Origin: Candidatus Omnitrophota bacterium
GTDB taxonomy: Bacteria > Omnitrophota > Gorgyraeia > Gygaellales > Profunditerraquicolaceae
Direction: 5' to 3'
NCBI GenBank assembly: GCA_028715415.1
Contig: JAQURX010000009.1
Location: forward strand, 11,807 to 75,806
Length of the DNA stretch: 64,000 bases
The translations under genes and the position numbers were made by a program. Below are positions 3,948 through 43,216 of the stretch, piece after piece (within the stretch, counting starts at the first letter, position 1; every line of letters starts with the position of its first letter). The notes below the pieces were generated by a model. It was not told the origin of the DNA, made no database searches, and saw only the letters and a program-made list of their open reading frames with translations.

Positions 3948-4244
3948 TTAAGTCAAGCCCGGGATATTAAAACCGGTTACCTCTTTCATCTTCTGTGCTG
4001 CAACATCATGAGAACGCTTAATCGCTTTATTATAAATATCTTTAAAGGTTTTTTCAAGGTAAGTTTTATCCATAGAGCTAATCCCATCTTGAACCGACAC
4101 TTCTTTTACTTCCTGAGCGCCATTCATTGTAATTTTCACCAAACCATCGTTTGAGGCAATCTCAAAATTAGTATTTTCTAATTCCCGCTTAACTTCCTGC
4201 ATCTTCTTTTGCATATCCATAAGCTGCTTCATCTTATCAAACAT
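3948..4244 (-). CDS. ybaB: nucleoid-associated protein YbaB/EbfC
   Basis: 98 aa; MFDKMKQLMDMQKKMQEVKRELENT...GLVKITMNG is the typical YbaB/EbfC sequence. Confidence 0.85.
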   Translation of the reverse strand: MFDKMKQLMDMQKKMQEVKRELENTNFEIASNDGLVKITMNGAQEVKEVSVQDGISSMDKTYLEKTFKDIYNKAIKRSHDVAAQKMKEVTGFNIPGLT

Positions 4245-4257
4245 ATTTCTCCTTTGT

Positions 4258-4884
4258 TTAAAACCCTAATTTTTCACCAACCAAAATAACCTTAAGCCTG
4301 CCCGGCACAACTTCCGCTTCAATAATTAAGACTTGGCAACACATCCTCTTATAATCAGAGGGCAAACACACTTCAGGATTACAAACTCCCTCTTTTAAAC
4401 AATAGCTCGGCCAATTCAGCCGTTTGCAATTAAGGGGAGTCGCGTATTCCCTTGCTCTTTTAAGAGCCGCTTCGACATTCGGGGTAATTTTATTAATTCC
4501 ACAGACTACGATAACGTTTTTTGCGCTGGAAATTCCTGCTATGCGATTTCCATAGGCACTTAAAAAAATCAGTTCTCCTGATAAGGATAACGCGTTTGCA
4601 CTGGTTAGATAATAATCTGCTTGCGAACCTTTATTCCTTAACTCTAAGCTTTCTTCTCTTGTTATCCCTGGCCTATATTGGTTAAAGACCTTGTTCCCGC
4701 GCAGCTCAAGGTGTTTTACAATCTCCAACTGGTCCAACGTAACCGATCCTGAAATCCCGACACTCGCAGCCAAGGGGATAGCCGACAAGACCCTGCCTCT
4801 TGCCTCTGTAATATCATTAGTAAAAATTCCGGAAATATTCCTTTTTTGCCAATTCCCAATTATCGTTTTTATTTCTTGTTCCAT
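4258..4884 (-). CDS. LUD-domain (LutC/YkgG family) protein
   Basis: 208 aa; LutC-like pattern (VIVVCGINKI, C-terminal cysteine-rich segment). Confidence 0.6.
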   Translation of the reverse strand: MEQEIKTIIGNWQKRNISGIFTNDITEARGRVLSAIPLAASVGISGSVTLDQLEIVKHLELRGNKVFNQYRPGITREESLELRNKGSQADYYLTSANALSLSGELIFLSAYGNRIAGISSAKNVIVVCGINKITPNVEAALKRAREYATPLNCKRLNWPSYCLKEGVCNPEVCLPSDYKRMCCQVLIIEAEVVPGRLKVILVGEKLGF

Positions 4885-4899
4885 ATTTAACTTTAAAAT

Positions 4900-6258
4900 C
4901 TATTGCCTGCGCACCAATTGTTTTGATAAATCTTTTTTTAGTTTCTCTAATCCGGGGCTAAACAAGACTGGATACCTATAATCAGAATCAATTTCTTTCA
5001 TTGCCACCGGGAAATATTTAAGATTTTGTTTTAGGTATATCCTTGATTGTTCAAGAGCAGGCGCTTTATAAACCAAGTTACCACCATGAATTACTTTCTT
5101 TAATAAAGGCTTGCCTTTTATCGCTTCATCCCAAAGGCCAATAATATCCTTAACAAACCTGCCTCGTTTATCTTTTATCCTATAAACTTGTTTTCTGCCC
5201 GGATAGGTAGCCTTACCTTTGCTGATTTTCATCTTAGGCTGAAACTTTCCGAATTCATCTGTAACTTCGCTTAATTTATATACAACATCTAAGACCGGAG
5301 CGTCAGTACTTGCCCCCATATTCGTCCCTACGCCGAAACTATCAATACAGGCCCCCTTAGAAAGCAAAACCTTGATTTTAAATTCATCCAAGTCTCCGCT
5401 GGCATAGATCTTAACATCTCCAAGCCCCGCTTGATTTAGCTTATGACGCGCAATCTTAGATAATGAGACAAAATCTCCGCTATCAAGCCTGATTCCAACT
5501 AATCTATGGCCCTTTTCTTTAAGAAACAAGCCGACTGTTACCGCATTTTCAATACCTTTTAATGTATCATACGTATCAACAAGAAGAATTGTTTTCTTAG
5601 GGAAAGTCTCTGCATACGCAAGAAAACTATCCAACTCGTGTCTAAAACTCATTACAAAAGAATGCGCCATTGTGCCGGCAACAGGTATTTTATACATCTT
5701 ACCTGCCAATACATTTGATGTCCCGCTAAAGCCTGCCAGGTAAGAACTTCTTGCCACTTTTAAACCTGCCTCCGGGCCATGAGTCCTTCTTAAAGAAAAA
5801 TCATAAACATTGGAAGACTTAGCACTCAGCACTATCCGTGAAGCTTTACTTGCAATCATTGACTGCAGATTAACTGTATTTAAAAGAACACTTTCAATGA
5901 GTTGGGTTTGAATAATTGGCGCTGTTACCCTTATTACCGTCTCCTGAGGAAAGAAAACCTCGCCCTCCGGAAGAGCCCAAAGATGCCCCTTAAAACGAAA
6001 ATCTTTAAGATAACCTAGAAAATCCGGAGTGAAAAGTTTCAGGCTTTTTAAATATGCTAATTCGGCATCAACAAATCTTAAGTTCAAAACATACTTTAAT
6101 ATATCATCTAAACCTGCAGCAACCAGGTATGAACGGTTTTTAGGAAAATCGCGCACAAATAAATCAAAAGTAGCCCAAGTATCCTCCCGATAATGGAAAT
6201 AACACTGGGCCATAGTAAGTTCGTATAAATCAACAAGAAGCGCATAACTATTATACAT
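4900..6258 (-). CDS. pncB: nicotinate phosphoribosyltransferase
   Basis: 452 aa; N-terminus LVDLYELTMAQCYFHY matches the NAPRTase family. Confidence 0.85.
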   Translation of the reverse strand: MYNSYALLVDLYELTMAQCYFHYREDTWATFDLFVRDFPKNRSYLVAAGLDDILKYVLNLRFVDAELAYLKSLKLFTPDFLGYLKDFRFKGHLWALPEGEVFFPQETVIRVTAPIIQTQLIESVLLNTVNLQSMIASKASRIVLSAKSSNVYDFSLRRTHGPEAGLKVARSSYLAGFSGTSNVLAGKMYKIPVAGTMAHSFVMSFRHELDSFLAYAETFPKKTILLVDTYDTLKGIENAVTVGLFLKEKGHRLVGIRLDSGDFVSLSKIARHKLNQAGLGDVKIYASGDLDEFKIKVLLSKGACIDSFGVGTNMGASTDAPVLDVVYKLSEVTDEFGKFQPKMKISKGKATYPGRKQVYRIKDKRGRFVKDIIGLWDEAIKGKPLLKKVIHGGNLVYKAPALEQSRIYLKQNLKYFPVAMKEIDSDYRYPVLFSPGLEKLKKDLSKQLVRRQ

Positions 6259-10834: not shown

Positions 10835-11554
10835 TTAAAGCAAATAATCTTTCTTTATGCGCTTAATTGACCGGAAGATGTTTTTCTTTACATCGGGGCA
10901 GACTTTTTGCAGGTCAGCGATAATACGGGCTATCTTTGTGCGGCTTGAAGTGTGGTAATTCGGGCAGATGCAGTCAAAAGTAGAAATCTTTGCGTCTTCT
11001 ATAAATCGCCTTACCTGGCGCTCTTCAACATAGGCAAGCGGACGGATTAAGGTAATTTTTCCTTTAAATAATTCCTGCTTTGGCGCCATTGCGGAAATTT
11101 CACCCTGAAAAAATAAGTTTAAGAGAATAGTCTGGATAATGTCGTCAAAATGATGCCCCAAGGCAATCTTATTAAAACCAAATTTATCTGCCTGCTCAAA
11201 TAAAGCCTTTCTTCTATTCCATGAGCACCAAAAACAGTTTATATCTTTCTTCTTAGTCTTTTTCAAGACATCAACTTTTTCAATATGATATTTAACGCCG
11301 ATTTTCTTAAAATATTTCTCAAGCGCCTTTGCACAGGACTTAGGATAACCCTGGTCTATATGCAGCGCCATTAAATCATACTTAACCGGGACAAAGCTCA
11401 TCCTATCCTGCATCACTTTTAACAGTGTCAGACTGTCTTTGCCACCGGAGACAGCAACAGCAATCTTATCGCCATCCTGGATCATATCATAATCCCCGAT
11501 AGCCTTGCCTATTTTATTAGAAATATAATATTCCGAACCTTTAATGTTTGACAT
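10835..11554 (-). CDS. PP-loop ATP pyrophosphatase, TtcA/TilS-like tRNA thiolation family
   Basis: 239 aa; SGGKDS PP-loop motif and CFWCS cysteines. Confidence 0.7.
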   Translation of the reverse strand: MSNIKGSEYYISNKIGKAIGDYDMIQDGDKIAVAVSGGKDSLTLLKVMQDRMSFVPVKYDLMALHIDQGYPKSCAKALEKYFKKIGVKYHIEKVDVLKKTKKKDINCFWCSWNRRKALFEQADKFGFNKIALGHHFDDIIQTILLNLFFQGEISAMAPKQELFKGKITLIRPLAYVEERQVRRFIEDAKISTFDCICPNYHTSSRTKIARIIADLQKVCPDVKKNIFRSIKRIKKDYLL

Positions 11555-11602
11555 AGTGGTTAATTATACTCTCCAAACTCAAAATTCTCAATTATTATCT
11601 CT

Positions 11603-11746
11603 TTGCGTCTGCCTTTGCTTGCTTCTCGCAGGGACGTTCGCCAGCCCCAGCGTGGCTGGCTCACTCTCGAAAATTCTCGCTCTGCCTACATTCTATTTAG
11701 CGGGGCAACCTTGCCCGCTCGAATTTCCGGAAGCCCTGCTGCGAAC
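11603..11746. other. 144-nt GC-rich element closed by a roughly 20-bp stem with two internal hairpins
   Basis: CCTTTGCTTGCTTCTCGCAGGG (11603-11624) pairs with CCCTGCTGCGAACCAAGCAAAGG (11724-11746), with two mismatches and one bulge. Internal hairpins are GCCAGCC/GGCTGGC and GCGGGGCAA/TTGCCCGC. Confidence 0.45.
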
Positions 11747-11780
11747 CAAGCAAAGGCATCCGCTAAATCTCTTGCAATAC

Positions 11781-11813
11781 CAAACAAAAACCCCAAGCGT
11801 TTTTAGTGCTTGG
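11781..11813 (-). terminator. rho-independent terminator-like hairpin (minus strand)
   Basis: Minus strand reads CCAAGCACUAAAAACGCUUGG followed by GGUUUUUGUUUGG. Confidence 0.5.
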
Positions 11814-11823
11814 AGTAGTAAAA

Positions 11824-11848
11824 ACCAGAACCGTCCCTATTATTTTTA
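11824..11848 (-). repeat. degenerate third copy of the REP-like motif
   Basis: Minus strand AAATAATAGGGACGGTTCTGGTTTTT compared with AAATAAAGGGGACGGTTCTATTTTT at 40148-40172 and 42088-42112. Confidence 0.6.
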
Positions 11849-11850
11849 AA

Positions 11851-12079
11851 TGAATCTGGCGGCTTTTCGAGCGAATGTCGATTTTAGGCAAAGCAGCTTG
11901 AGCATTGAGGGAATCCCGATGCCGCGACCGACAGGGCGCGGCAATATCGGGATGGCGATGCTGTTCGAGCGCCGAGTGAGAGCACGAGGCGCGAGTTCAG
12001 CAGCCACCGAAATGCGAAAGACCTTTGGCGGCCCCGAAGGGGCAAAATCTACCTTGAGCGAGAAAAGACGGCAGATTCA
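11851..12079. mobile_element. 229-bp MITE-like nonautonomous element with imperfect 18-bp terminal inverted repeats, flanked by a TTAAA direct repeat
   Basis: The left end TGAATCTGGCGGCTTTTC is an inverted repeat of the right end GAAAAGACGGCAGATTCA (16/18 match). Flanking TTAAA sits at 11846-11850 and 12080-12084. About 57% GC. Inserted exactly at the malQ stop codon. Confidence 0.55.
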
Positions 12080-13909
12080 TTAAACCCTATTCGAATCAAC
12101 AACCATCTTCTTGATTTCGCCGGTAACGTGGTGCCGGAGCAAATCATCCAATGAAATCGGAAGGCGCATGGACCAGTTTTTATTGCTGATAATTCCCGGA
12201 GTATTAATCCTGTATTGGTAGGGGTCGCCCTTAAAGATTCCCGCAATACTTAGCCAGTCTGTAATTAACTGGATACAAAATATTGCCTGGGATTCTAAGG
12301 TAAAGTTTAAAGCAGCATAAATTAATTCATTACCGGCATCTTCCTGCATCTTTCCCGGCATCTCTAAAATGCTCCAGAGCTTTTCTTTCTCCTGATAAGT
12401 ATCAAGATATAAACTTATAAAATCCCCCACCTTCTCTCTCGGCTTAGCTAGTACATGCAAAAGCGCATCTACTGAATCAATGCTATCAAGCCAGCGCAGC
12501 CTTCCATGACAAGATAGATTTAAATCAAAAAGATTATCCCTTGCATAACTAAAATCAATCCCTCTGTCATTACATTTTCTTACGAATAATGCTTCATCAA
12601 CTGTGCCTGCCTCATATTTCCACCAAGCTGACCAGTTTGTCGTATCATGCGTTGAAAGCATGGCAACTGAAAGCGCCCTGTAGTCTTGCGGCATAAGAAA
12701 ATCGTGTTTAACACTCCAATCCTTTACCCAGCGCTGCACATCATTTCCGGGAATTCCTAATTCTTTCAATGTGTCAGTGCAACACTTTGGTATTGTCCCT
12801 AAATCTTCGGCGCACAAAGCCATCTTGCTTGAATCGAGCATCACATTTAGAATCTTCTTGCCCTGCCCGCACCATTTACTCTCATCACTCGGGTCAAAAG
12901 ATCCATGCAAACCCTGATTTTCTTTTGGATCATTATAAGGAATACTCCAAATCCTAAATAAACCAACCACGTGGTCAATCCTTAAAATGTCATAAAAATT
13001 CTCAGCGTATTTTAACCTTTCTTTAAGATACCTAAAACCATCCTGTTCAATCTTTTCCCAATTATAAGTCGGCATCCCCCAACGCTGGCCCTTTGCGCAA
13101 TACATATCAGGCGGAGCGCCTGCTGCAAAATCAAGCTTAAAAAAATGCGGCTGCTGCCAGACATCAGCGCTGTCGCGGGAAACCAAGATCGGGAGGTCGC
13201 CCTTTATAAGAATATTCTTTAAGGCAGCATAATCTTTTAAATCCTGGAATTGCTCAAAAAGAATCCACTGCAGCCACATCTGAAAAGTAATTTCTTTTTC
13301 ATGGGCTTTATAAAAACTATCCAACGACTCTTTATTCCTATCTCTGTAACCCGGATCCCAATCATACCAAGCGCTTTCGCCGTGACTACTCTTTAATGCT
13401 TTATAAAGCGCGAAATCAAAAAGCCAATAGGAATTTGCTTCCTGAAATTTATTAAATTTCACGGCATCCATAACTCCATTTATAGAAAAAATCTCCCAGA
13501 GTAAATCTAATTTCTCCTTCTTTACCCCGTAATCTACATTGGAAGTTGTGGAAGGAAAATTTTTTGAAAGTGCATCTATTCTCGCAAGGATTGTTTTATT
13601 TTTAGGAAGGAATTTATCCTTAAGGCAAATATACGAAGGCTCCAAAGCAAAGGAGCTTACCGAATCATAAGGGCAGAATACTCCCCCTAACTCATTCATC
13701 GGCAAGAGTTGAATAATTGAATTACCGGATTTAGCTGCCCAGTCAACTAGGAGCTTTAAATCATTAAGGTCGCCAATGCCTTGGCTTTGTTTTGAACAAA
13801 GCGAGAAAATCGGGGCTACAACTCCCACTCTCTTACTTAAACCAATCTTCTTCCACTTTTCCTGTGATTTTGTGGCAAGAAGATACTCATATTTAGTCTC
13901 TTGCGTCAT
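12080..13909 (-). CDS. malQ: 4-alpha-glucanotransferase (amylomaltase, GH77)
   Basis: 609 aa; QLLPMNE...PYDSVSSFALEP matches the GH77 N-terminal signature. Confidence 0.8.
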   Translation of the reverse strand: MTQETKYEYLLATKSQEKWKKIGLSKRVGVVAPIFSLCSKQSQGIGDLNDLKLLVDWAAKSGNSIIQLLPMNELGGVFCPYDSVSSFALEPSYICLKDKFLPKNKTILARIDALSKNFPSTTSNVDYGVKKEKLDLLWEIFSINGVMDAVKFNKFQEANSYWLFDFALYKALKSSHGESAWYDWDPGYRDRNKESLDSFYKAHEKEITFQMWLQWILFEQFQDLKDYAALKNILIKGDLPILVSRDSADVWQQPHFFKLDFAAGAPPDMYCAKGQRWGMPTYNWEKIEQDGFRYLKERLKYAENFYDILRIDHVVGLFRIWSIPYNDPKENQGLHGSFDPSDESKWCGQGKKILNVMLDSSKMALCAEDLGTIPKCCTDTLKELGIPGNDVQRWVKDWSVKHDFLMPQDYRALSVAMLSTHDTTNWSAWWKYEAGTVDEALFVRKCNDRGIDFSYARDNLFDLNLSCHGRLRWLDSIDSVDALLHVLAKPREKVGDFISLYLDTYQEKEKLWSILEMPGKMQEDAGNELIYAALNFTLESQAIFCIQLITDWLSIAGIFKGDPYQYRINTPGIISNKNWSMRLPISLDDLLRHHVTGEIKKMVVDSNRV

Positions 13910-18564: not shown

Positions 18565-19038
18565 TTATCTTTCTATCGCAATCTTACCAGTTCTAATTAA
18601 TTCCTTAACACCAAATTTCGCTACTACAGTTAAAAGTGCTTGAATTTGTTCCTGCTCGCCAACTGCTTCAATAATCGCAACATTATTTTTAAATTGGATT
18701 ACTTTAGCGATATATTTTTTTAAAACAGCTTCCAATTTAGCCTTATCCTTCTGGGCACAGTTTACTTTAGCCAACACAAGCTCTCTCTCCACATGTTCTT
18801 TCTTGGTAAAATCCGTTATTGTGATAACATCAATAAGTTTATTTAACTGCTTTTTAATCTGCTCTAAAATCTGCTCATCTTTAGTGTCAACTACTATGGT
18901 CATATAAGAAATTGACGGATCAAGCGTTTCGCTGACTGCCAAAGAAGAAATATTATATCCTCGAGCGCTAAATAAACCTGAAATCCTGGCAAGGACTCCA
19001 AACTTATTCTCAACTAAAACCGAAATTGTATGTTTCAT
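18565..19038 (-). CDS. ilvN: acetolactate synthase small (regulatory) subunit
   Basis: 157 aa; [31 protein letters not shown] domain. Confidence 0.85.
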
Positions 19039-20705
19039 TATGCTAACCCCTCTAACATCTTATTGATTGCTTCGCCTGCCGGAACCATCGGAAACACATT
19101 CTCTTCAGGCTCAACATGAAAATCAACGAAAACAGTATTTTCTATTTTAAGCATTTTCTCTAAAGCAGCTCGCACGTCTTCTTTTTTAGTTACACGCATC
19201 CCAACTGCATTATAACTCTCTGCTAATTTTACAAAATCAGGGCTCGTGATACACACGCCAGAATAACGTCTCTTATAAAAGAGCTCCTGCCACTGCCGCA
19301 CCATTCCTAAATAACCGTTGTTCAAAATAACCACCTTTACATTTATCTTATTACACACACAAGTAGCGAGCTCCTGGATATTCATCTGGATTGAACCGTC
19401 CCCCGCTATATCAATAACTTGCTTTTCCGGGCATCCAATCTTTGCTCCCATTGCAGCAGGAAAACCAAAACCCATTGTGCCTAATCCCCCGCTTGAGAGA
19501 AAAGTGCGTGGCTTAATATATTTATACCATTGCGCTGCCCACATCTGGTTTTGCCCGACTTCAGTTGTAATAATTGCGTCTCCCTTGGTCAAATCCCAAA
19601 GTTGTTCAATAACATACTGCGGCTTAATAATACCCGCGCTATCTTTATATTTAAGAGGGAATTTTTTCTTCCAACCATCTATTGTCTTAAGCCAAGCTGA
19701 AGTATCGGCTTTCTTCTTTATCTCTTCTAATAATTCTCCAAGGATATTTTTAGCATCTCCTACAATCGGGATGTCCACCCGGATATTCTTGCTTATAGAG
19801 GATGGGTCAATATCAATATGGATTACTTTTGCTCCAGGCGCGAATGTATCAGTTCTACCGGTAACGCGGTCATCAAAACGAGCACCAACTGCGATAATTA
19901 AATCAGCCTCGGTAATTGCATGATTTGCATAGGCTGTCCCATGCATACCAAGCATACCCAAAGACAACTCGTTTGTCGCCGGAAAACATCCAATACCCAT
20001 TAAAGTCCAGGTTACCGGGGCTTGAATCTTTTCTGCTAAAGCCTTTAATTCCCGATGAGCACCCGAAGTAATTATCCCGCCACCTGCATAAATTACAGGC
20101 TTTTTTGCGTTAACAATAAATTTAGCTGCTTTTTTAATTTGACCGGGATGCCCAAAAAGCGTTGGCTTATAACCTTTAATTTCTACTTCCTCGGGCCAGA
20201 TAAATTCCGTATCCTGAAGCTGCACATCAGAAGGAATATCAATTAAAACCGGGCCGGGCCTGCCAGTTGAAGCAATCAAAAAAGCTTCCCGTACAGTCCT
20301 TGCCAAATCCTTAATATCTTTAACTAAATAATTGTGCTTTGTAATCGGGCGTGTTATACCTGTAACATCAGCCTCCTGAAAAGCGTCATTACCGATAAGA
20401 AAGCTTTTAACTTGGCCCGTAATTGCCACCATTGGGATTGAATCCATATAAGCATTGGCAATACCAGTAGTAAGATTAGTTGCTCCGGGCCCGCTGGTTG
20501 CAAGGCAAACTCCAGTTTTTCCGGTTGCGCGAGAATAGCCATCAGCAGCATGCGCTGCACCTTGCTCATGGCGCACCAGGATAAACTTAATATCTGAATC
20601 ATAAAGCTTATCAAACAAAGGCAAAACCTGTCCGCCCGGGTAACCAAAAATCACCTCAACGCCTTCACGCTTCAAACACTCAATTAATATTTGTGCACCT
20701 GTCAT
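19038..20705 (-). CDS. ilvB: acetolactate synthase large subunit
   Basis: 555 aa thiamine-diphosphate enzyme (GYPGG...GDGS). Confidence 0.9.
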
Positions 20706-32782: not shown

Positions 32783-32855
32783 AGCGGGAGACGGGATTCG
32801 AACCCGCGACATTAACCTTGGCAAGGTTACGCTCTACCAACTGAGCCACTCCCGC
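32783..32855 (-). tRNA. tRNA-Gly(GCC)
   Basis: Minus strand GCGGGAGTGGCTCAGTTGGTAGAGCGTAACCTTGCCAAGGTTAATGTCGCGGGTTCGAATCCCGTCTCCCGCT folds as a cloverleaf with anticodon GCC. No encoded CCA. Confidence 0.9.
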
Positions 32856-32893
32856 GTTGTTCGTTGTTACTTAAAAACTTTTTAAAAAACAAA

Positions 32894-32975
32894 TGGGCGG
32901 AAGAGGATTTGAACCTCCAAGGGTTGCCCCAATAGCTCCTAAGGCTATCGTGTCTGCCAGTTCCACCACCCGCCC
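32894..32975 (-). tRNA. tRNA-Leu(TAG), long variable arm
   Basis: Minus strand GGGCGGGTGGTGGAACTGGCAGACACGATAGCCTTAGGAGCTAT...GGTTCAAATCCTCTTCCGCCCA has anticodon loop CTTAGGA. Confidence 0.85.
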
Positions 32976-33013
32976 TTAAAAGGCGAAAAAATTGACTCAT
33001 TTGAAAAATTAAA

Positions 33014-33086
33014 TGAGCCTCCCGAGACTCGAACTCGGCACACGCGGCTTAAAAAGCCGCTGCTCTACCGGATGAGCTAGAGGCCC
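33014..33086 (-). tRNA. tRNA-Lys(TTT)
   Basis: Minus strand GGGCCTCTAGCTCATCCGGTAGAGCAGCGGCTTTTTAAGCCGCGTGTGCCGAGTTCGAGTCTCGGGAGGCTCA has anticodon loop TTTTTAA. Confidence 0.9.
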
Positions 33087-33093
33087 AAATTTA

Positions 33094-38073: not shown

Positions 38074-39000
38074 ATGGATAAAATAAGAGTAGGAGTAATT
38101 GGGGTTGGGCATTTAGGCAGTATACACGCAAAAATCTATAAAGATATCAAAAACTGCACTTTGGCTGGAGTCTGCGATACTGACGCGAAGCGGCTTCAAG
38201 AAATATCTAGAAATTTACGCGTCCCTGCTTTTTCCGATTTTCACCAATTTTTCGGCAAAGTTGACGCGATAAGCGTTGCTGTTCCAACTAAATTCCATTA
38301 TGAGGTTGCAAAAACTTGCCTAGAAAATAATACTCATATACTTGTAGAAAAGCCTTTTACTACCAATCTTGAAGAAGCTGACGCGCTAATTAAGCTTGCC
38401 AAAGAAAAAAATCTTATATTACAAGTTGGCCACATTGAGCGTTTTAATTCCGCTTTCTCAGCAACACAAAAATTAATCAAAGATCCTAAGTTTATTGAAT
38501 GCCATCGTCTAAGCCCGTTTCCAAATCGTTCTTTGGATGTTGGAGCTGTGCTTGATATTATGATCCACGATATTGATATAATTTTAGGCCTCGTCCCCTC
38601 TCCTGTTGAAAAGATTGAATCCGTAGGCATAAATGTTTTAACTCAGTTTGAGGATATCGCAAATGCTCGCATTACATTTAAAAATGGCTGTGTAGCAAAT
38701 TTAACCGCAAGCAGGATCTCCGATGAATTTATGCGTAAAATCCGGATTTTTCAGGAAGCAACATACATCTCCCTTGATTACAAAGATGCCAAAGCCTGCA
38801 TTTATAAAAAAACCGGCTATTCAATTTCAAAAGATAACATCCCTATTGAAAAAGAACAGCCTCTGCAAAAAGAGCTTCAAGCCTTCATTGATTGCGTGCA
38901 AAATCATAAAGAGCCTTTAGTTTCAGGAGAAGTAGCCAGAGAAGCCCTTGCAGTTGCACTCATAATCCAAAACCAGATATGGCAGAAAAACAAATCCTAA
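38074..39000 (+). CDS. Gfo/Idh/MocA-family NAD(P)-dependent oxidoreductase (GnnA-like candidate); start taken as MDKIRVG, not the upstream in-frame ATG at 38038
   Basis: MDKIRVGVIGVGHLGSIHAKIY Rossmann N-terminus and ...LVEKP... consensus. 22-nt overlap with lpxB. Confidence 0.7.
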   Translation: MDKIRVGVIGVGHLGSIHAKIYKDIKNCTLAGVCDTDAKRLQEISRNLRVPAFSDFHQFFGKVDAISVAVPTKFHYEVAKTCLENNTHILVEKPFTTNLEEADALIKLAKEKNLILQVGHIERFNSAFSATQKLIKDPKFIECHRLSPFPNRSLDVGAVLDIMIHDIDIILGLVPSPVEKIESVGINVLTQFEDIANARITFKNGCVANLTASRISDEFMRKIRIFQEATYISLDYKDAKACIYKKTGYSISKDNIPIEKEQPLQKELQAFIDCVQNHKEPLVSGEVAREALAVALIIQNQIWQKNKS

Positions 39001-40112
39001 TTGTCTGCGGGGAAGCCTCAGGCGATTTAAACGCAGCCAACCTTGCAAAAAATATCCTTAAGATTAATCCTAAAATTAAAATCTTTGCAGTTGGCGGGAA
39101 CTTGCTTAAACAGGCGGGCGCGGAAATCATTTATGACATAAAAGATCTTTCAGTAATGGGGTTTTTTGATGTTTTAAAGAAACTCCCTAATTTCTTCGCT
39201 CTTAAAAAATTCGTTTTAGAAAAAATAGCTCGTATCAAACCCGACTTAATAATCTTGGTTGATTTCTCCGGATTTAATTTAAGGCTTGCCAAAGATATTA
39301 ATAAATCAATCCCGATAATTTACTATATTAGCCCGCAGGTCTGGGCGTCGCGAGCTGGCAGGATAAATACTATAAAAGAATATATTTCAAAGATGATTGT
39401 TCTTTTTAAATTTGAGGAAGATTTCTACAAAAAACATGGTGTTAATGTTGACCTAACAGGACACCCCCTTCTTGATATAGTAAAGCCTTCTATGGATAAA
39501 AATGACTTTATTTCCAAATATTACATATCTGGAGCAAAAAAAACAATTGCTATTTTACCCGGTTCGCGCAAAGCTGAAATTAAAAACATCCTGCCAATTA
39601 TGCTTGAGGCTGCAGAAATTTTAAGCAAAAAAATCCCGGATATTCAGTTTGTTATTGCAAAATCTCCACAGGTAGATATGAAAGACTATAAATCCATTAT
39701 GAGTAGCTTTAACTTTGATATTAAAATTATCGAAGGGAAAACTTACGATTGTTTAAATGTCGCAGATTTCTGCTTTGTCTGCTCGGGTACAGCAACCCTT
39801 GAAACAGCTATCATGCAAAAACCATTCTGTATTATCTACAAGATGAATTTGCTAAATTACTTATTGTACCGTCCGCAGGTAAAAATTCCTTTCATCGGGA
39901 TGGTTAATATTGTTGCCGATAAATTGATTGTTCCTGAATTTATCCAATTCCGTGCAAGGCCCGAAGATATTGCAGAAAAAACATTGGAGATAATAAATTT
40001 ACCTTCCGAAATTAACCGCATCAAAGACGAACTTGCTAAAGTTAAAGACTCCCTCGGAGAAACTGGTGCAAGCGCCCGCGCCGCAAAAATCGTCGTAGAT
40101 TATCTAAAATAA
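38979..40112 (+). CDS. lpxB: lipid-A-disaccharide synthase
   Basis: 377 aa; ILIVCGEASGDLNAANLAKNI matches the LpxB GT19 N-terminus. Confidence 0.85.
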   Translation: MAEKQILIVCGEASGDLNAANLAKNILKINPKIKIFAVGGNLLKQAGAEIIYDIKDLSVMGFFDVLKKLPNFFALKKFVLEKIARIKPDLIILVDFSGFNLRLAKDINKSIPIIYYISPQVWASRAGRINTIKEYISKMIVLFKFEEDFYKKHGVNVDLTGHPLLDIVKPSMDKNDFISKYYISGAKKTIAILPGSRKAEIKNILPIMLEAAEILSKKIPDIQFVIAKSPQVDMKDYKSIMSSFNFDIKIIEGKTYDCLNVADFCFVCSGTATLETAIMQKPFCIIYKMNLLNYLLYRPQVKIPFIGMVNIVADKLIVPEFIQFRARPEDIAEKTLEIINLPSEINRIKDELAKVKDSLGETGASARAAKIVVDYLK

Positions 40113-40172
40113 AGGGGACGGTTCTATTTTTGTTCTTCTTCAAATTAAAAAATAGAACCGTCCCCTTTATTT
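40107..40172. terminator. perfect 25-bp palindrome (two inverted REP-like copies) between convergent lpxB and the cargo gene; bidirectional terminator / BIME-like
   Basis: Arms 40107-40131 and 40148-40172 (AAATAAAGGGGACGGTTCTATTTTT) with a 16-nt loop. The TAA stops of both convergent genes lie symmetrically inside the arms. Confidence 0.75.
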
Positions 40173-41306
40173 CTCATTTAATGAATTCTCAAGAATAACA
40201 ACAGGACTCTTCCCAAAAGTAATTAAACCTATCTGAAATGTATTTAAATCAAATAGAATAATTTGATTATCCCCCAACTGACAAATAACCTGATCATTTG
40301 GTAATACTGTTACTTTAGTCACTGGCCACATTAAAAAAGGAGTCTCAAGAGCAATCCGTAAGGACTTTCCTGTATGTATATTGTCCGCCCGCAATCCTTC
40401 TATAGCCCAACTTCCCGCATAAACATACCAATCACGCTCATTTTCTGCTCTAAAATCAATAGGTTCCCGACTATAAGGCCCGATATCTGAACTACAAGGT
40501 TCATTTGCAGCCGTCATTCCATTAATATCATCTAACAAAACTCTTGAATAATCATAATAAAGCTCGGATTTCTTATTATATTCAAACCAATTAATACTTA
40601 ATTTCCCTTTGCCTCCTTTATTGCAGATGTAAAGCGTTGCTCCGAGTTCATCTTTAAGCATAAATTCTTTAACTTTTTCCTTAGAACTACCGTCTGCTCT
40701 AATTCTATACAAACCGTCACAATCCGAAGAAACATAATAAACCCAAGCATTATTAGATTTAAGAAAAAATGCCGGTTTATCAACTTTGGTTTTAGTTATT
40801 AAACTTACTCCACTAACAGAAAGATAAATAGGTATGAATATACCATAGGATATTGTCTGTAAAACAATACTAGCCTTGAATGATAGCCTATCTCGATCGG
40901 TTTTTTCTTTCATAATCCAAAAACAAAAAGGCCATTCAATAAAGATTGTTAATACGTAAGAGAACAATAAGATAAATACAAGCATACAAAAAACATTGTT
41001 TATTGAAACGAAATTGTCAACTATTCCTTGCGAGAAAATTATCCCAATTACTCCAATAATCATTGAAAAGTAATTTGCTAATATCATTATTAAAATACTT
41101 CTCATTGTTTTCGTTCCAAAATAACGAACTAGGATTTTTCCTTCAATTACACCAATGAGAGTATTACCTAAAAGCAAATGACCGACACCTAACCATAACA
41201 AAGCTGTTCCTGCATTTGCACAGGCAAAAGAAGGATAAGCAAATAAAACAGCTAAGAAAAACAAACTAGCAAACCTTACTTTTAACTTATTCACATCTTT
41301 CTCCAT
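40167..41306 (-). CDS. hypothetical membrane protein (N-terminal 4-5 TM helices, C-terminal soluble domain); cargo gene next to the RAYT
   Basis: 379 aa ORF. The C-terminal YY/DG-rich region resembles beta-propeller-type repeats. No enzymatic motif recognised. Confidence 0.5.
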   Translation of the reverse strand: MEKDVNKLKVRFASLFFLAVLFAYPSFACANAGTALLWLGVGHLLLGNTLIGVIEGKILVRYFGTKTMRSILIMILANYFSMIIGVIGIIFSQGIVDNFVSINNVFCMLVFILLFSYVLTIFIEWPFCFWIMKEKTDRDRLSFKASIVLQTISYGIFIPIYLSVSGVSLITKTKVDKPAFFLKSNNAWVYYVSSDCDGLYRIRADGSSKEKVKEFMLKDELGATLYICNKGGKGKLSINWFEYNKKSELYYDYSRVLLDDINGMTAANEPCSSDIGPYSREPIDFRAENERDWYVYAGSWAIEGLRADNIHTGKSLRIALETPFLMWPVTKVTVLPNDQVICQLGDNQIILFDLNTFQIGLITFGKSPVVILENSLNEK

Positions 41307-41345
41307 TCTGCTAAACTATTTCTTACCAAGAAAAAAATGACGGTT

Positions 41346-42023
41346 CTAATATTTGTCTTTGGGCGGCCTTCCTTTGCTATCTCTCCTATTCTTCGTCTGA
41401 TAATATTCCTGTAACTTATCGATAAAAGCTTGGCTGCCAATATACAGTTTTTTCGCGAGTACATCTGAATTAATTATACTGCCATCAATTACAAAATCAA
41501 TAAATTGCTTTTGCCTTGAGGTAGCGGAATCAGATAATCCCAAATAAGCCGGGCTTAGGGTAATAAGCGAATCTGGTTTACCTTTCGCATAGCAATTATA
41601 ACTAGAGAAACGATACTCTGCTGGATGGCTGACCACTCCCGCGCGCACAGGATTCAGTTCAATATATTTTCCGCACTGTAATAGATAAGAATCGACCTCA
41701 ATAATGTTGCTTTTAAACCTATCTTGCCATAAATGGCCACAGTAATCATATAATTTACTATAATAATAAAAGTAAGTTAAATTTAGCTGTTTCATGAATC
41801 TTGACAATTTACTTTCCGGCTTAAGATTTAAGATTAAGTGAACATGATTATCCATCAAACAGTAATGTAAAATATCTATTTTATTTTCATTCTTTAATTC
41901 ATTTAACAAAGAATAATACCTTAATTTATCATTATCACAATGAAATACATTATTCTTGTTATTCCCCCTACAAATAACATGTAAAGCTGAATTACAAGAG
42001 ACTATTCGTTTAATCCTTGGCAT
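41346..42023 (-). mobile_element. REP-associated tyrosine transposase (RAYT, IS200-like Y1 HUH transposase)
   Basis: 225 aa. HUH motif NHVHLIL, catalytic-Tyr region EYRFSSY and the RGNN...LWQDRFKS...YIELNPVRAG pattern match the TnpA_REP / IS200 transposase family. Confidence 0.8.
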
Positions 42024-42087
42024 AAAAAATCCCTCCTTCTACTATAATAGACGTAGAAAAAGGGCAAATCTAACAGATTTATTTTAG

Positions 42088-42112
42088 AAAAATAGAACCG
42101 TCCCCTTTATTT
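42088..42112 (-). repeat. REP-like 25-nt motif copy, providing the stop codon of the M48 peptidase gene
   Basis: Identical to 40148-40172. On the minus strand, AAA-TAA-AGGGGACGGTTCTATTTTT follows the last Lys codon. Confidence 0.8.
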
Positions 42113-43216
42113 TGCTAATTTGATGCGTTCGTCAATCGGCGGGTGGTCGAAGAAAAAGAATTTAATTATTGGGTGAGGATTTCTGTCTGCGAGGTTTTGG
42201 GTTGCAAGCTTATCCATCGTAGAAATAAAAGCTTCTTTCATACCCGTGGTCTTTAGTGCAAGTTTATCTGCTTCTCTCTCAAGCACTCTGCTATAAAAAC
42301 ATGTTAAAGGCTGTGAAATTACTCCAAATAAAACGAAATAAATAAAAACTATTGGCAAAGCTGATATCTGAGACAAAGAATCAAACCCGAATAAATTCAA
42401 AACAAAATGATTTGTAATAAAAATAAGATAGAAAACCAGAAAAGTTGCCAACGAATTAACAATTATCAACTTCGTAAGATGTTTAAGCTTATAGTGAGCA
42501 AATTCGTGCGCTAAGATAACCTCTATTTCCTCCTGAGAATATTTATCCTTGAGCGTATCAGCCAATAAAACTCTTCTTGAGCGGCCTAAGCCTACAAAAG
42601 CAGCATTAGCCTTAAGCGATTTTGAGCTTAAATCAATTTCAAAACAATCCAGCAAACTAACTCCCATTTTCTTAGCCAAATTCATAATCCTCTCTCTTAA
42701 GCTCTCATCTGAGAGTTTCTTATACTTAAAGAATAAAGGGATTATAATCGTGGGAGTTAACTTTGCTAAAATTAAGCTAAAAAGTATCCAAAACAAAGAA
42801 ATTACCAGCCACCAGTTCTGCTGGAAACGATTCAGGATAAAATAAAATGCCGATAACAAGACTAGGCCAATAATATACGAAAGAATAAACGACTTTAACT
42901 GATCAATAAACCAATTACTTAGTTTTTGATTTGAGAGGTTAAATTTGTGCTCTACGTAATACGAACCGTAGAAATTAAGCGGGAAACTAAAAAATAGATA
43001 AATAACTGATAAAAGGAATAAATAGGCAGGAATTACAAAATAGTTATTCGCAGACAGGCTTAAAACAAAAAGCGCCAGATTCTTAGAAAACCCTAAACCA
43101 ACAAAAACAAACAAAAGCACCAGTAAATATATTGTATCAATAATTACTAGTGCATATTTTAAGGAAGAATACTCTTTTGCTTTACCAAGAGTATCTTCCT
43201 TAACCTGAGAATTCAT
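42107..43216 (-). CDS. M48-family zinc metallopeptidase (HtpX/Ste24-like), polytopic
   Basis: 369 aa; HEFAHYKLKH HExxH motif and multiple TM helices. Confidence 0.75.
   Translation of the reverse strand: MNSQVKEDTLGKAKEYSSLKYALVIIDTIYLLVLLFVFVGLGFSKNLALFVLSLSANNYFVIPAYLFLLSVIYLFFSFPLNFYGSYYVEHKFNLSNQKLSNWFIDQLKSFILSYIIGLVLLSAFYFILNRFQQNWWLVISLFWILFSLILAKLTPTIIIPLFFKYKKLSDESLRERIMNLAKKMGVSLLDCFEIDLSSKSLKANAAFVGLGRSRRVLLADTLKDKYSQEEIEVILAHEFAHYKLKHLTKLIIVNSLATFLVFYLIFITNHFVLNLFGFDSLSQISALPIVFIYFVLFGVISQPLTCFYSRVLEREADKLALKTTGMKEAFISTMDKLATQNLADRNPHPIIKFFFFDHPPIDERIKLAK

Follow-up and report, generated by a model that had tools for sequence, protein, structure and literature searches.

Repeat copies at the lpxB-M48 locus

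The DNA examined here is a 64-kb stretch (the window) from an uncultured Candidatus Omnitrophota bacterium that is known as a metagenome-assembled genome (MAG). Between the lipid-A-disaccharide synthase gene lpxB (38979-40112, plus strand; Pfam LpxB, E = 3e-88) and an M48 (HtpX/Ste24-like) peptidase gene (42107-43216, minus strand; Pfam Peptidase_M48_N and Peptidase_M48), it carries a gene for a Y1/HUH enzyme of 225 amino acids (aa; 41346-42023, minus strand; Pfam Y1_Tnp), a gene for a 379-aa membrane protein (40167-41306, minus strand), and copies of a short repeat, each of which is called an arm below. An earlier note on this DNA had described the locus as a transposase plus cargo gene flanked by repeats.

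The 25-mer AAATAAAGGGGACGGTTCTATTTTT was found in three exact copies: arm A at 40107-40131 (plus strand), which reads AAATAAA-GGGGACGGTTCT-ATTTTT, arm B at 40148-40172 (minus strand), and arm C at 42088-42112 (minus strand). No further copies were seen in the window at up to three mismatches, and 0 of 100 shuffled windows contained any match. Arms A and B are perfect inverted copies over 25 bp, separated by a 16-nt spacer (40132-40147) that is the predicted loop of the doublet, and arms A and C are complementary over 26 nt. The three copies and the palindrome had been reported in the earlier note, which missed two others. One is a degenerate copy, arm D' (41337-41348, plus strand; ATGACGGTTCTA versus GGGACGGTTCTA), which overlaps the transposase stop codon. 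The other is a diverged solo arm (11821-11845, minus strand; AAATAATAGGGACGGTTCTGGTTTT) in a 525-nt intergenic region. The window thus holds four copies plus one degenerate copy, only one of which lies away from the lpxB-M48 locus.

As the note had also stated, lpxB, the membrane gene, and the M48 gene all end in AAA-TAA inside an arm, which was confirmed from the sequence and the list of open reading frames (ORFs). For lpxB, the lysine codon is 40107-40109 and the TAA is 40110-40112, both in arm A. The TAA and lysine codons of the membrane gene are the reverse complements of 40167-40169 and 40170-40172 (arm B), and those of the M48 gene are the reverse complements of 42107-42109 and 42110-42112 (arm C).

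Folded as RNA, the 40107-40172 doublet is predicted to reach -37 to -38 kcal/mol on either strand (z about -9; -9.4), with a hairpin stem of 25-26 bp and UUUAUUU after the stem on both strands. The solo copy at 42088-42112 gave no strong hairpin in the folding prediction. A consensus terminator scan of 39900-42300 reported none; it is blank at the doublet because the 16-nt loop exceeds the scanner limit of 8. From the sequence, termination of transcription on both strands is plausible for the doublet only, and not for the solo copy. A search of the doublet against Rfam returned no specific family and gave only sub-threshold matches to generic long hairpins (microRNA precursors, plastid 3' untranslated region).

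The enzyme is a subclass 2.1 Y1/HUH protein

The prediction that the 225-aa protein belongs to the Y1/HUH family held when the ORF at 41346-42023 was checked against Pfam Y1_Tnp (PF01797; E = 6e-18, 65.6 bits, cut-off 23). On NCBIfam profiles, it scored 65.3 bits with REP_Tyr_transpos (NF047646), below the equivalog cut-off of 80, and 29.4 bits with IS200, below the cut-off of 55. The best Protein Data Bank match to its AlphaFold model (predicted local distance difference test score of 73) was 4ER8, the E. coli TnpA-REP (E = 2e-7, template modelling score 0.72, 160 columns), followed by the IS608 and ISDra2 TnpA proteins. Judged from sequence and fold, the enzyme is similar to the tyrosine transposases associated with repetitive extragenic palindromic (REP) sequences, or RAYTs, and is neither a canonical RAYT nor an IS200-type transposase. 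The earlier note had called it an IS200-like tyrosine transposase and a RAYT; the second label is close and the first is not supported.

The motifs DNHVHLIL, HLWQDRF, KYIELNPVRAG, and YRFSSY can be read from the translation. They place the HUH motif at H60-V-H62, followed by W99-Q100, Y120 within YIELNP, and an S140-S141 tail motif. The residues that are invariant among 38 homologues include N59, H60, H62, Y120, E122, L123, N124, P125, S140, and S141. Y120 aligned with the KYIE tyrosine of ISDra2 TnpA, the catalytic residue of that enzyme. By this alignment, the catalytic tyrosine is Y120 and does not lie within YRFSSY, which carries the SS tail motif. The HUH motif named in the earlier note is present; the note had missed the tyrosine in YIELNP.

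These motifs are those of a published subclass of TnpA-Y1 proteins. Subclass 2.1 is characterized by NHVH (or NH[YF]H), W[EQ], YIELNP (or Y[IV]HLNP), an SS tail, and a length of about 238 aa (Quentin et al. 2018, PMC6006769, Table 1). The same study gives DHLH and YIHYNP as the motifs of subclass 2.2, Y---Q as the Y-motif of class 1.1, and Y---NP as that of class 2. Subclass 2.1 is equivalent to the Group 1 RAYTs (Bertels et al. 2017, PMC5581495) and covers most of the "TIRYT" proteins (Di Nocera et al. 2013, PMC3733652). By sequence, therefore, this Y1/HUH enzyme falls in TnpA-Y1 subclass 2.1 / Group 1 RAYT / TIRYT. A Pfam search of residues 134-225 at E <= 10 gave no match, including to the expected helix-turn-helix (HTH)-like families Bac_DnaA_C, HTH_23, and HTH_28. 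The C-terminal region of the AlphaFold model is helical, with low confidence past residue 185. The HTH-like similarity of subclass 2.1 is weak as published, and for this reason the missing match does not exclude membership.

The window contains one copy of the transposase gene. A homologue search gave 1,311 matches, the best 120 of which were at 56-100% identity. Nearly all of the clusters among these best 120 occur on few contigs, most on one.

Inverted arms bracket the transposase gene at unrelated loci

The window was compared with six loci of close homologues at 58-77% identity (L002, L004, L006, L179, L180, and L181). Counting the window, the transposase gene lies in seven unrelated gene neighbourhoods, and in 7/7 it has GGGGACG[G/T/C]TTC on both sides in inverted orientation. 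The left copy precedes the ATG by 69-103 nt, with the core of arm C 81 nt upstream in the window, and the right copy overlaps the stop codon or lies within about 30 nt after it. The stop codon is often the TAG of TAGAACCGTCCC, and this stop-in-core geometry is seen in L006, L126, and L179. Three more distant homologues at 38-42% identity, which were found via the motif scan described below (L096, L126, and L121), have the same inverted flanking copies, and the left distance over all ten loci is 55-111 nt. L004 and L096 carry a decayed copy at the stop codon plus an intact copy 29 nt beyond. The proposal that the motif is the cognate flanking repeat of the transposase was therefore borne out in the seven close loci and the three distant ones.

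In the window, the right end is the degenerate copy at 41337-41348 (ATGACGGTTCTA), whose CTA is the reverse complement of the TAG stop codon of the transposase gene. Since this copy overlaps the transposase stop, the sequence places the minimal unit at about 41337-42112 (~0.78 kb), with the membrane gene outside it. The gene context differs in every relative while housekeeping synteny is kept, which indicates that the unit moves.

L179 contains two paralogues about 1 kb apart, one with GGGGACGGTTCT ends and the other (L179b) with GGGGTCAGAAT ends. The two types of ends at one locus are good evidence for a pairing of each enzyme with a particular type of arm. The two subclass 2.1 paralogues are separated by a pair of ribbon-helix-helix and Fic genes (L179:3900-6450).

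Using tblastn, homologues annotated as "transposase" were found at 31-37% identity on plasmids of Pseudomonas aeruginosa, Rhodospirillum rubrum, Skermanella, and Iodobacter. They share NHVH, YIELNP, and WSSY. Their left flanks contain ATAAAGGGGACAGATTTATTTT..., AAAAGGGGTCAGACCCC, AAATGGGGTCAGAG, and ACTGGGGTCAGAGC, with GGGGACAG or GGGGTCAG as the left-end motif. A matching inverted right copy lies at the stop codon or 3-60 nt past it in three of the four, and none was found for the Skermanella homologue. TIRYT elements have a terminal inverted repeat (TIR) with the consensus GGGGWSAS (PMC3733652). The plasmid homologues and L179b fit this consensus at 8/8 positions, and the window core GGGGACGG fits at 7/8, departing at position 7 with G for A. 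The window and Pseudomonas arms are visibly homologous (ATAAAGGGGAC-GGTTC-TATTTT versus ATAAAGGGGAC-AGATT-TATTTT).

Two further observations concern the surroundings of the arms. At five loci, a partial tandem duplication of the arm's 5' half adjoins some copies on the outside (L002:9915-9945; L004:7500-7530; L126, upstream of the left arm; L180:3835-3960; L177:1380-1420). The duplicated units are CAATAAAGGG x2, TAAAGGGG x2, GAATAAATGG x3, AACTAGGGGACGCTTCG x3, and GGAAATGGGGTCAGAG x2, and they may have been left by slippage or by several rounds of cutting and rejoining near GGGG|AC. In a Lachnospiraceae MAG (L121:5100-5230 and 5975-6070; L129:3670-3720), the arms around the transposase homologue are not single copies and occur in tandem arrays with a 34-nt period, GACCAAT-GGGGACGGTTCT-ATTTTGGC....

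A predicted leader hairpin precedes the transposase gene

The leader between the left arm and the ATG is conserved as GTTAGATTT-CCCTCCTTTTAC-GTCTATTAATA-GTAGAAGGAGGG-ATTTTTTATG. In the window, CCCUUUUUCUAC...GUAGAAGGAGGG (42031-42064, minus strand) forms a predicted 12-bp hairpin over the transposase Shine-Dalgarno sequence, with which it pairs at GGAGG. The leader is kept in seven homologue loci; the hairpin was seen upstream of the ATG in the window, L002, L004, L006, L179, and L180, with the GTTAGATTT box conserved just upstream of it. L179b, which has the other type of TIR, has the same leader. The substitutions on the 5' side of the stem among homologues are C/U opposite G, which keeps the pairing at the RNA level through G-U pairs. 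mRNA structure suppresses the tnpA of IS200 (PMC4513863), and the hairpin here likewise suggests tight translational control.

The lpxB-M48 junction carries a lineage-specific insertion

Thirty metagenome loci with relatives of LpxB were examined for the ancestral gene order. Twelve of them (56-71% LpxB identity) keep the order oxidoreductase-lpxB-> <-M48-L27-metallo-beta-lactamase-fold protein. None of these 12 syntenic relatives has the transposase, the membrane gene, or the core, as the synteny check proposed in the earlier note had anticipated. Therefore, the 2 kb that separates the two genes in the window is an insertion specific to its lineage. In L149 (7105-7135), L155 (2005-2025), and L156 (2372-2392), the convergent genes overlap by 14-26 nt, and in L154 and L168 they are 76-222 nt apart. 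In seven other relatives, different, unrelated minus-strand genes lie between the two, so that on sequence the junction is a variable spot. The small minus-strand genes found there encode a secreted protein of about 130 aa or a protein of about 210-260 aa. The base composition gives no clear mark of the insert, with a G+C fraction of 0.30-0.37 inside and 0.33-0.40 outside.

The core was absent from all of the related lpxB loci (0/30), which shows that the motif was not an ancestral terminator of the lpxB/M48 junction, as had been suggested. The earlier idea of a 1.9-kb segment inserted between lpxB and M48 agrees with the 12 relatives that lack it. The part of that idea in which the cargo gene belongs to the transposase unit is not supported, since the unit ends at the degenerate copy at 41337-41348.

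The ends of the three genes were compared with those of their homologues. In the window, the M48 protein (...ERIKLAK*) is 2-11 residues shorter at its C-terminus than in 12/12 relatives. The membrane protein is five residues longer than 7/7 aligned homologues, which fits reading on to the TAA of arm B. The end of LpxB (...DYLK*) coincides with that in its closest relatives, L143, L145, and L150. Given the shorter M48 protein and the longer membrane protein, at least two of the three TAA stops therefore derive from the element and have replaced native ends.

The membrane protein had no match in Pfam or NCBIfam and only 42 homologues, with a patchy distribution. Its gene lies between the doublet and the transposase unit and is part of neither. 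The two readable homologue loci (L173 and L174) have unrelated neighbourhoods with no arms and no transposase. Together with the end of the unit at the transposase stop, these homologues speak against the claim that the gene is cargo carried inside the element. The simplest history would be that of a variable gene downstream of M48 that was later flanked by two insertions, the transposase unit and the arm doublet.

Arms and convergent doublets are dispersed in many genomes

A degenerate pattern scan of one genome per GTDB species listed at least 120 stretches with the motif. The window's own MAG is not among them, the arms were counted in 8-kb tiles chosen by the motif, and the core is invariant over 11 nt by construction of the scan. 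The earlier note had asked whether the motif is unique to this locus, and the scan shows that it is dispersed. Among the matches listed, there were at least 221 arms, with 57 convergent (+,-) pairs less than 150 nt apart, 9 tandem pairs, and 0 divergent pairs. The pairs among these matches occur in MAGs of at least eight phylum-level groups. The labels of the MAGs with pairs are Omnitrophota (about 20 loci), Aminicenantes, Deltaproteobacteria/Smithella/Syntrophorhabdus, Planctomycetia, Elusimicrobia, Clostridia/Lachnospiraceae, Bacteroidales, and Coriobacteriia. Most of the listed arms are far from any transposase gene, and the repeats greatly outnumber the gene. Some of the other MAGs carry 5-7 arms per 8 kb, in tiles selected by the motif. 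Viral contigs gave 16 single core matches, mostly without arm stems, and no doublets.

The doublets of the listed MAGs mostly adjoin gene 3' ends. A TAA was found at -5 in 54/229 arms among the matches listed. The stop codon of an ORF of at least 80 codons lies within 8 nt before the core in 19 arms, three of them in the window, and within 30 nt in 65/224 arms. Sorting of the doublets into intergenic and intragenic was too crude to use when based on ORFs, because six-frame ORFs of at least 100 codons spuriously span many doublets. In one Clostridia MAG (L063:4056-4490), an arm doublet starts at 4441, about 30 nt past the 3' end of a tmRNA gene (Rfam tmRNA, 4056-4410).

The flanks of the core vary between genomes, yet they are complementary within one arm. 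Examples are tgtgtcaatA-core-Aattgacaca, gccaaaG-core-Gtttggc, and gggaaaaG-core-Gatttccc. In 131 distinct arms, 58.4% of the cells of the in-register stem were paired, compared to 52.2 +/- 1.0 in column-preserving shuffles (0/500 reached the observed value). The covariation score was 0.265, compared to 0.178 +/- 0.012 in the shuffles (0/500) and 0.14-0.175 for registers slid by 1-3 nt. AU, UA, CG, and GC alternatives are all present in the inner six stem pairs. From the pairing and covariation, an arm appears to be a 13-nt centre enclosed by a stem of about 6 bp; in the window, it has a short A/T-rich stem and an invariant 12-13-nt centre, GGGGACGGTTCT. Two arms in convergent order form the long hairpin.

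Searches for a previous description of the arm had little yield. Nine doublet-rich loci gave no match in Rfam. In the searchable literature, the core sequence returned unrelated primer matches only, and it is absent from the supplements of PMC3733652 and PMC6006769. The CGTC-tagged REPs of PMC3733652 were considered because the reverse complement of the core contains CCGTC. These REPs were rejected because they are built of 8-9 bp stems with loops of 4-5 nt, end in a CCA tail, and lack an associated transposase.

Other features of the window

The diverged solo arm at 11821-11845 lies in 525 gene-free nucleotides (11554-12080) between two minus-strand genes. It adjoins a terminator-like hairpin, CCAAGC...GCTTGG, followed by GGTTTTTG (minus strand), with G+C-richer sequence further upstream. 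An Rfam search of 11500-12120 at E <= 0.1 gave no match. A core-like sequence with one mismatch, GGGGACGGTTCAA, is found at 19391-19403 inside a 555-aa gene (19038-20705). Its flanks do not resemble an arm, and it probably matches by chance. Three tRNA genes, Gly-GCC, Leu-TAG, and Lys-TTT, lie at 32783-33087 on the minus strand and are unrelated to the transposase element.

Interpretation of the locus

The locus is likely to be a "TIRtron," in which a single-copy subclass 2.1 gene is bracketed by inverted cognate arms, together with a separate arm doublet, the whole being a lineage-specific insertion. The doublet at 40107-40172, at the junction of lpxB and the membrane gene, would be a REPIN-like derivative, or one like a miniature inverted-repeat transposable element, of the kind that is dispersed in many genomes. 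Everything between lpxB and M48 would have been inserted where these genes were ancestrally convergent and, in some relatives, overlapping. Because each arm carries an outward-facing TAA, three abutting genes could come to terminate in arms; the M48 protein would have lost at least two residues and the membrane protein gained five, with the end of LpxB kept. HUH/Y1 enzymes such as IS608 TnpA, ISDra2 TnpA, and TnpA-REP bind DNA hairpins on single strands and cut and join DNA via a 5'-phosphotyrosine. We infer that the enzyme at this locus similarly recognizes the arm in single-stranded DNA, folded into a stem-loop or with two arms paired, and that it would cut and rejoin at the arms, mobilizing what lies between two convergent ones. 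Such a reaction could spread both the 0.78-kb unit and the short doublets. The doublet probably terminates both the lpxB transcript and that of the M48-transposase-membrane gene string, and the leader hairpin over the Shine-Dalgarno sequence probably keeps translation of the transposase low, as in IS200.

Several points weigh against this interpretation. Cutting and movement of the arms by this particular enzyme is inferred from the comparisons above. There are few copies in the window (four plus one degenerate per 64 kb, one of them away from the locus), which gives no sign of active amplification in this genome. Gene conversion or a recent duplication could have produced the three identical 25-nt copies as well as transposition. 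The arm stem in this genome consists of A/T pairs only, with a mismatch, and a solo arm would be marginally stable without protein. The arms used for the covariation analysis are related and, therefore, are not phylogenetically independent.

A broader reading combines three claims: the arm is the long-missing cognate DNA element of the largest RAYT-like group, it forms one REPIN-like family over eight phyla, and it acts as a portable stop/terminator cassette. The eight phyla may be Omnitrophota, Aminicenantes, Desulfobacterota, Nitrospirota, Planctomycetota, Elusimicrobiota, Bacillota, and Bacteroidota. We put this combination forward tentatively, as it is somewhat more apt to fail than to hold in all three parts. 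If it is true, the outward TAA and the hairpin would let an arm settle in overlapping convergent gene ends with neither gene killed.

Another possibility is a composite element, in which the 2,008-bp segment at 40106-42113 moved whole via the outermost arms, A and C, with the membrane gene as true cargo and arms B and D' as inner arms. The complementarity of arms A and C is 100% over 26 nt, and these arms directly abut lpxB and M48. Also, the cargo family is rare and patchy, as for an accessory gene, and the gene is found at this site in no relative. However, in ten of the ten homologue loci with the core, the unit is the transposase gene alone between two arms, and the cargo homologues in L173 and L174 are in unrelated contexts without arms or a transposase. 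Arm B is as identical as arms A and C, and A plus B is a standard short doublet, of which 57 were found elsewhere among the matches listed. The junction often holds different minus-strand genes downstream of M48, which makes a resident gene plus two insertions equally simple. Based on these points, transfer of the whole segment is unlikely.

The earlier note had seen in the locus the REP/RAYT arrangement of the gamma-proteobacteria, that is, GTAG-footed REPs in hundreds of copies and REPINs mobilized by a vertically inherited, immobile RAYT. The RAYT-like enzyme and the inverted doublets at gene 3' ends would suit this arrangement, but neither GTAG nor GTGG is found at the foot of the arm, and it is the centre of the arm that is conserved and not the stem. 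The enzyme reaches 65 bits on REP_Tyr_transpos versus the cut-off of 80, and its YIELNP and NHVH motifs are those of subclass 2.1 and not of subclass 2.2 (DHLH/YIHYNP). The copy number in the window is low, and the changing gene context amid conserved housekeeping synteny means that the unit moves. We therefore consider the canonical arrangement very improbable and replace it with a TIR-flanked variant. An ordinary autonomous IS200/IS605 insertion sequence, with the motif as subterminal hairpins, would account for the Pfam Y1_Tnp match, for the presence of the unit at different sites in different species, and for a leader hairpin that occludes the ribosome-binding site like that of IS200 (PMC4513863). 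It is contradicted by the Y-motif, which is Y---NP (class 2) and not Y---Q (class 1.1), by the NCBIfam IS200 score of 29 bits versus the cut-off of 55, by the lack of tnpB, and by ends that are inverted copies of each other, unlike those of IS200/IS605. Moreover, the unit is single-copy in 64 kb, nearly all protein clusters occur on few contigs (most on one), and the repeats, most of which are found apart from the gene, far exceed it in number. Such an element is very improbable here.

The TIRtron interpretation has several implications. Among RAYT-like enzymes, subclass 2.1 / Group 1 forms the largest group and the one least understood, and it is not known to have a defined substrate or an activity. 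The locus and its relatives give a precise 12-nt candidate recognition sequence in a simple architecture, and the L179 paralogue with GGGGTCAG ends is a natural control for specificity. They are also evidence that the family of elements reaches into many uncultured phyla. In addition, the locus shows an insertion into a compact, overlapping convergent junction, with ends that rebuild the stop codons of the neighbours. For annotation, the arms explain identical 3' ends of unrelated genes.

Comparison with known systems

The locus shares with IS200 the Y1/HUH core, a 5'-leader stem-loop over the ribosome-binding site (PMC4513863), and a very small size, about 0.78 kb here. It differs in that the window protein lacks the class 1.1 Y---Q motif, the ends are inverted copies, and non-autonomous arm doublets far outnumber the gene.

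The likeness is closer to the REP/REPIN-RAYT systems, such as the TnpA-REP of E. coli and the REPINs of Pseudomonas. Both have an HUH/Y1 enzyme, with 4ER8 as the best fold match here, a single-copy gene between inverted repeats, and dispersed inverted doublets that form long hairpins, mostly by gene 3' ends. In contrast to REPs, the window arm has no GTAG foot and consists of an A/T stem around a non-palindromic core, with conservation in the arm centre and not in a G+C-rich stem. The protein is of another subclass with an extra C-terminal tail, the location of the gene shifts between related species, and there are few copies in this genome (64 kb seen).

The locus belongs to a kind already described, the TIRtron/TIRYT elements of subclass 2.1 or Group 1 RAYTs (PMC3733652; PMC6006769; PMC5581495). 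The protein agrees with these in length, NHVH, W[EQ], YIELNP, and the SS tail. The gene likewise lies between inverted TIRs, the left one tens of nt before the ATG and the right one at the stop codon, and the TIR starts A-rich and continues with GGGG[A/T][C/G]. In both, moderate numbers of TIRs also stand at other genomic sites, singly or as dimers, and the gene copy number is low. Three features are new compared to the published work. One is the GGGGACGGTTCT core variant together with its breadth across uncultured phyla: the window core departs from GGGGWSAS at position 7 and is invariant over 11-12 nt across many phyla, and the hosts are Omnitrophota and other mostly uncultured lineages that were unsampled in those papers. 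Another is the covarying arm stem around the core, in a subclass for which no REP-like structure was reported (PMC6006769). The third is that the window arms supply the stop codons of three neighbouring genes, which is a clear example of stop codons contributed by arms where two genes once converged or overlapped.

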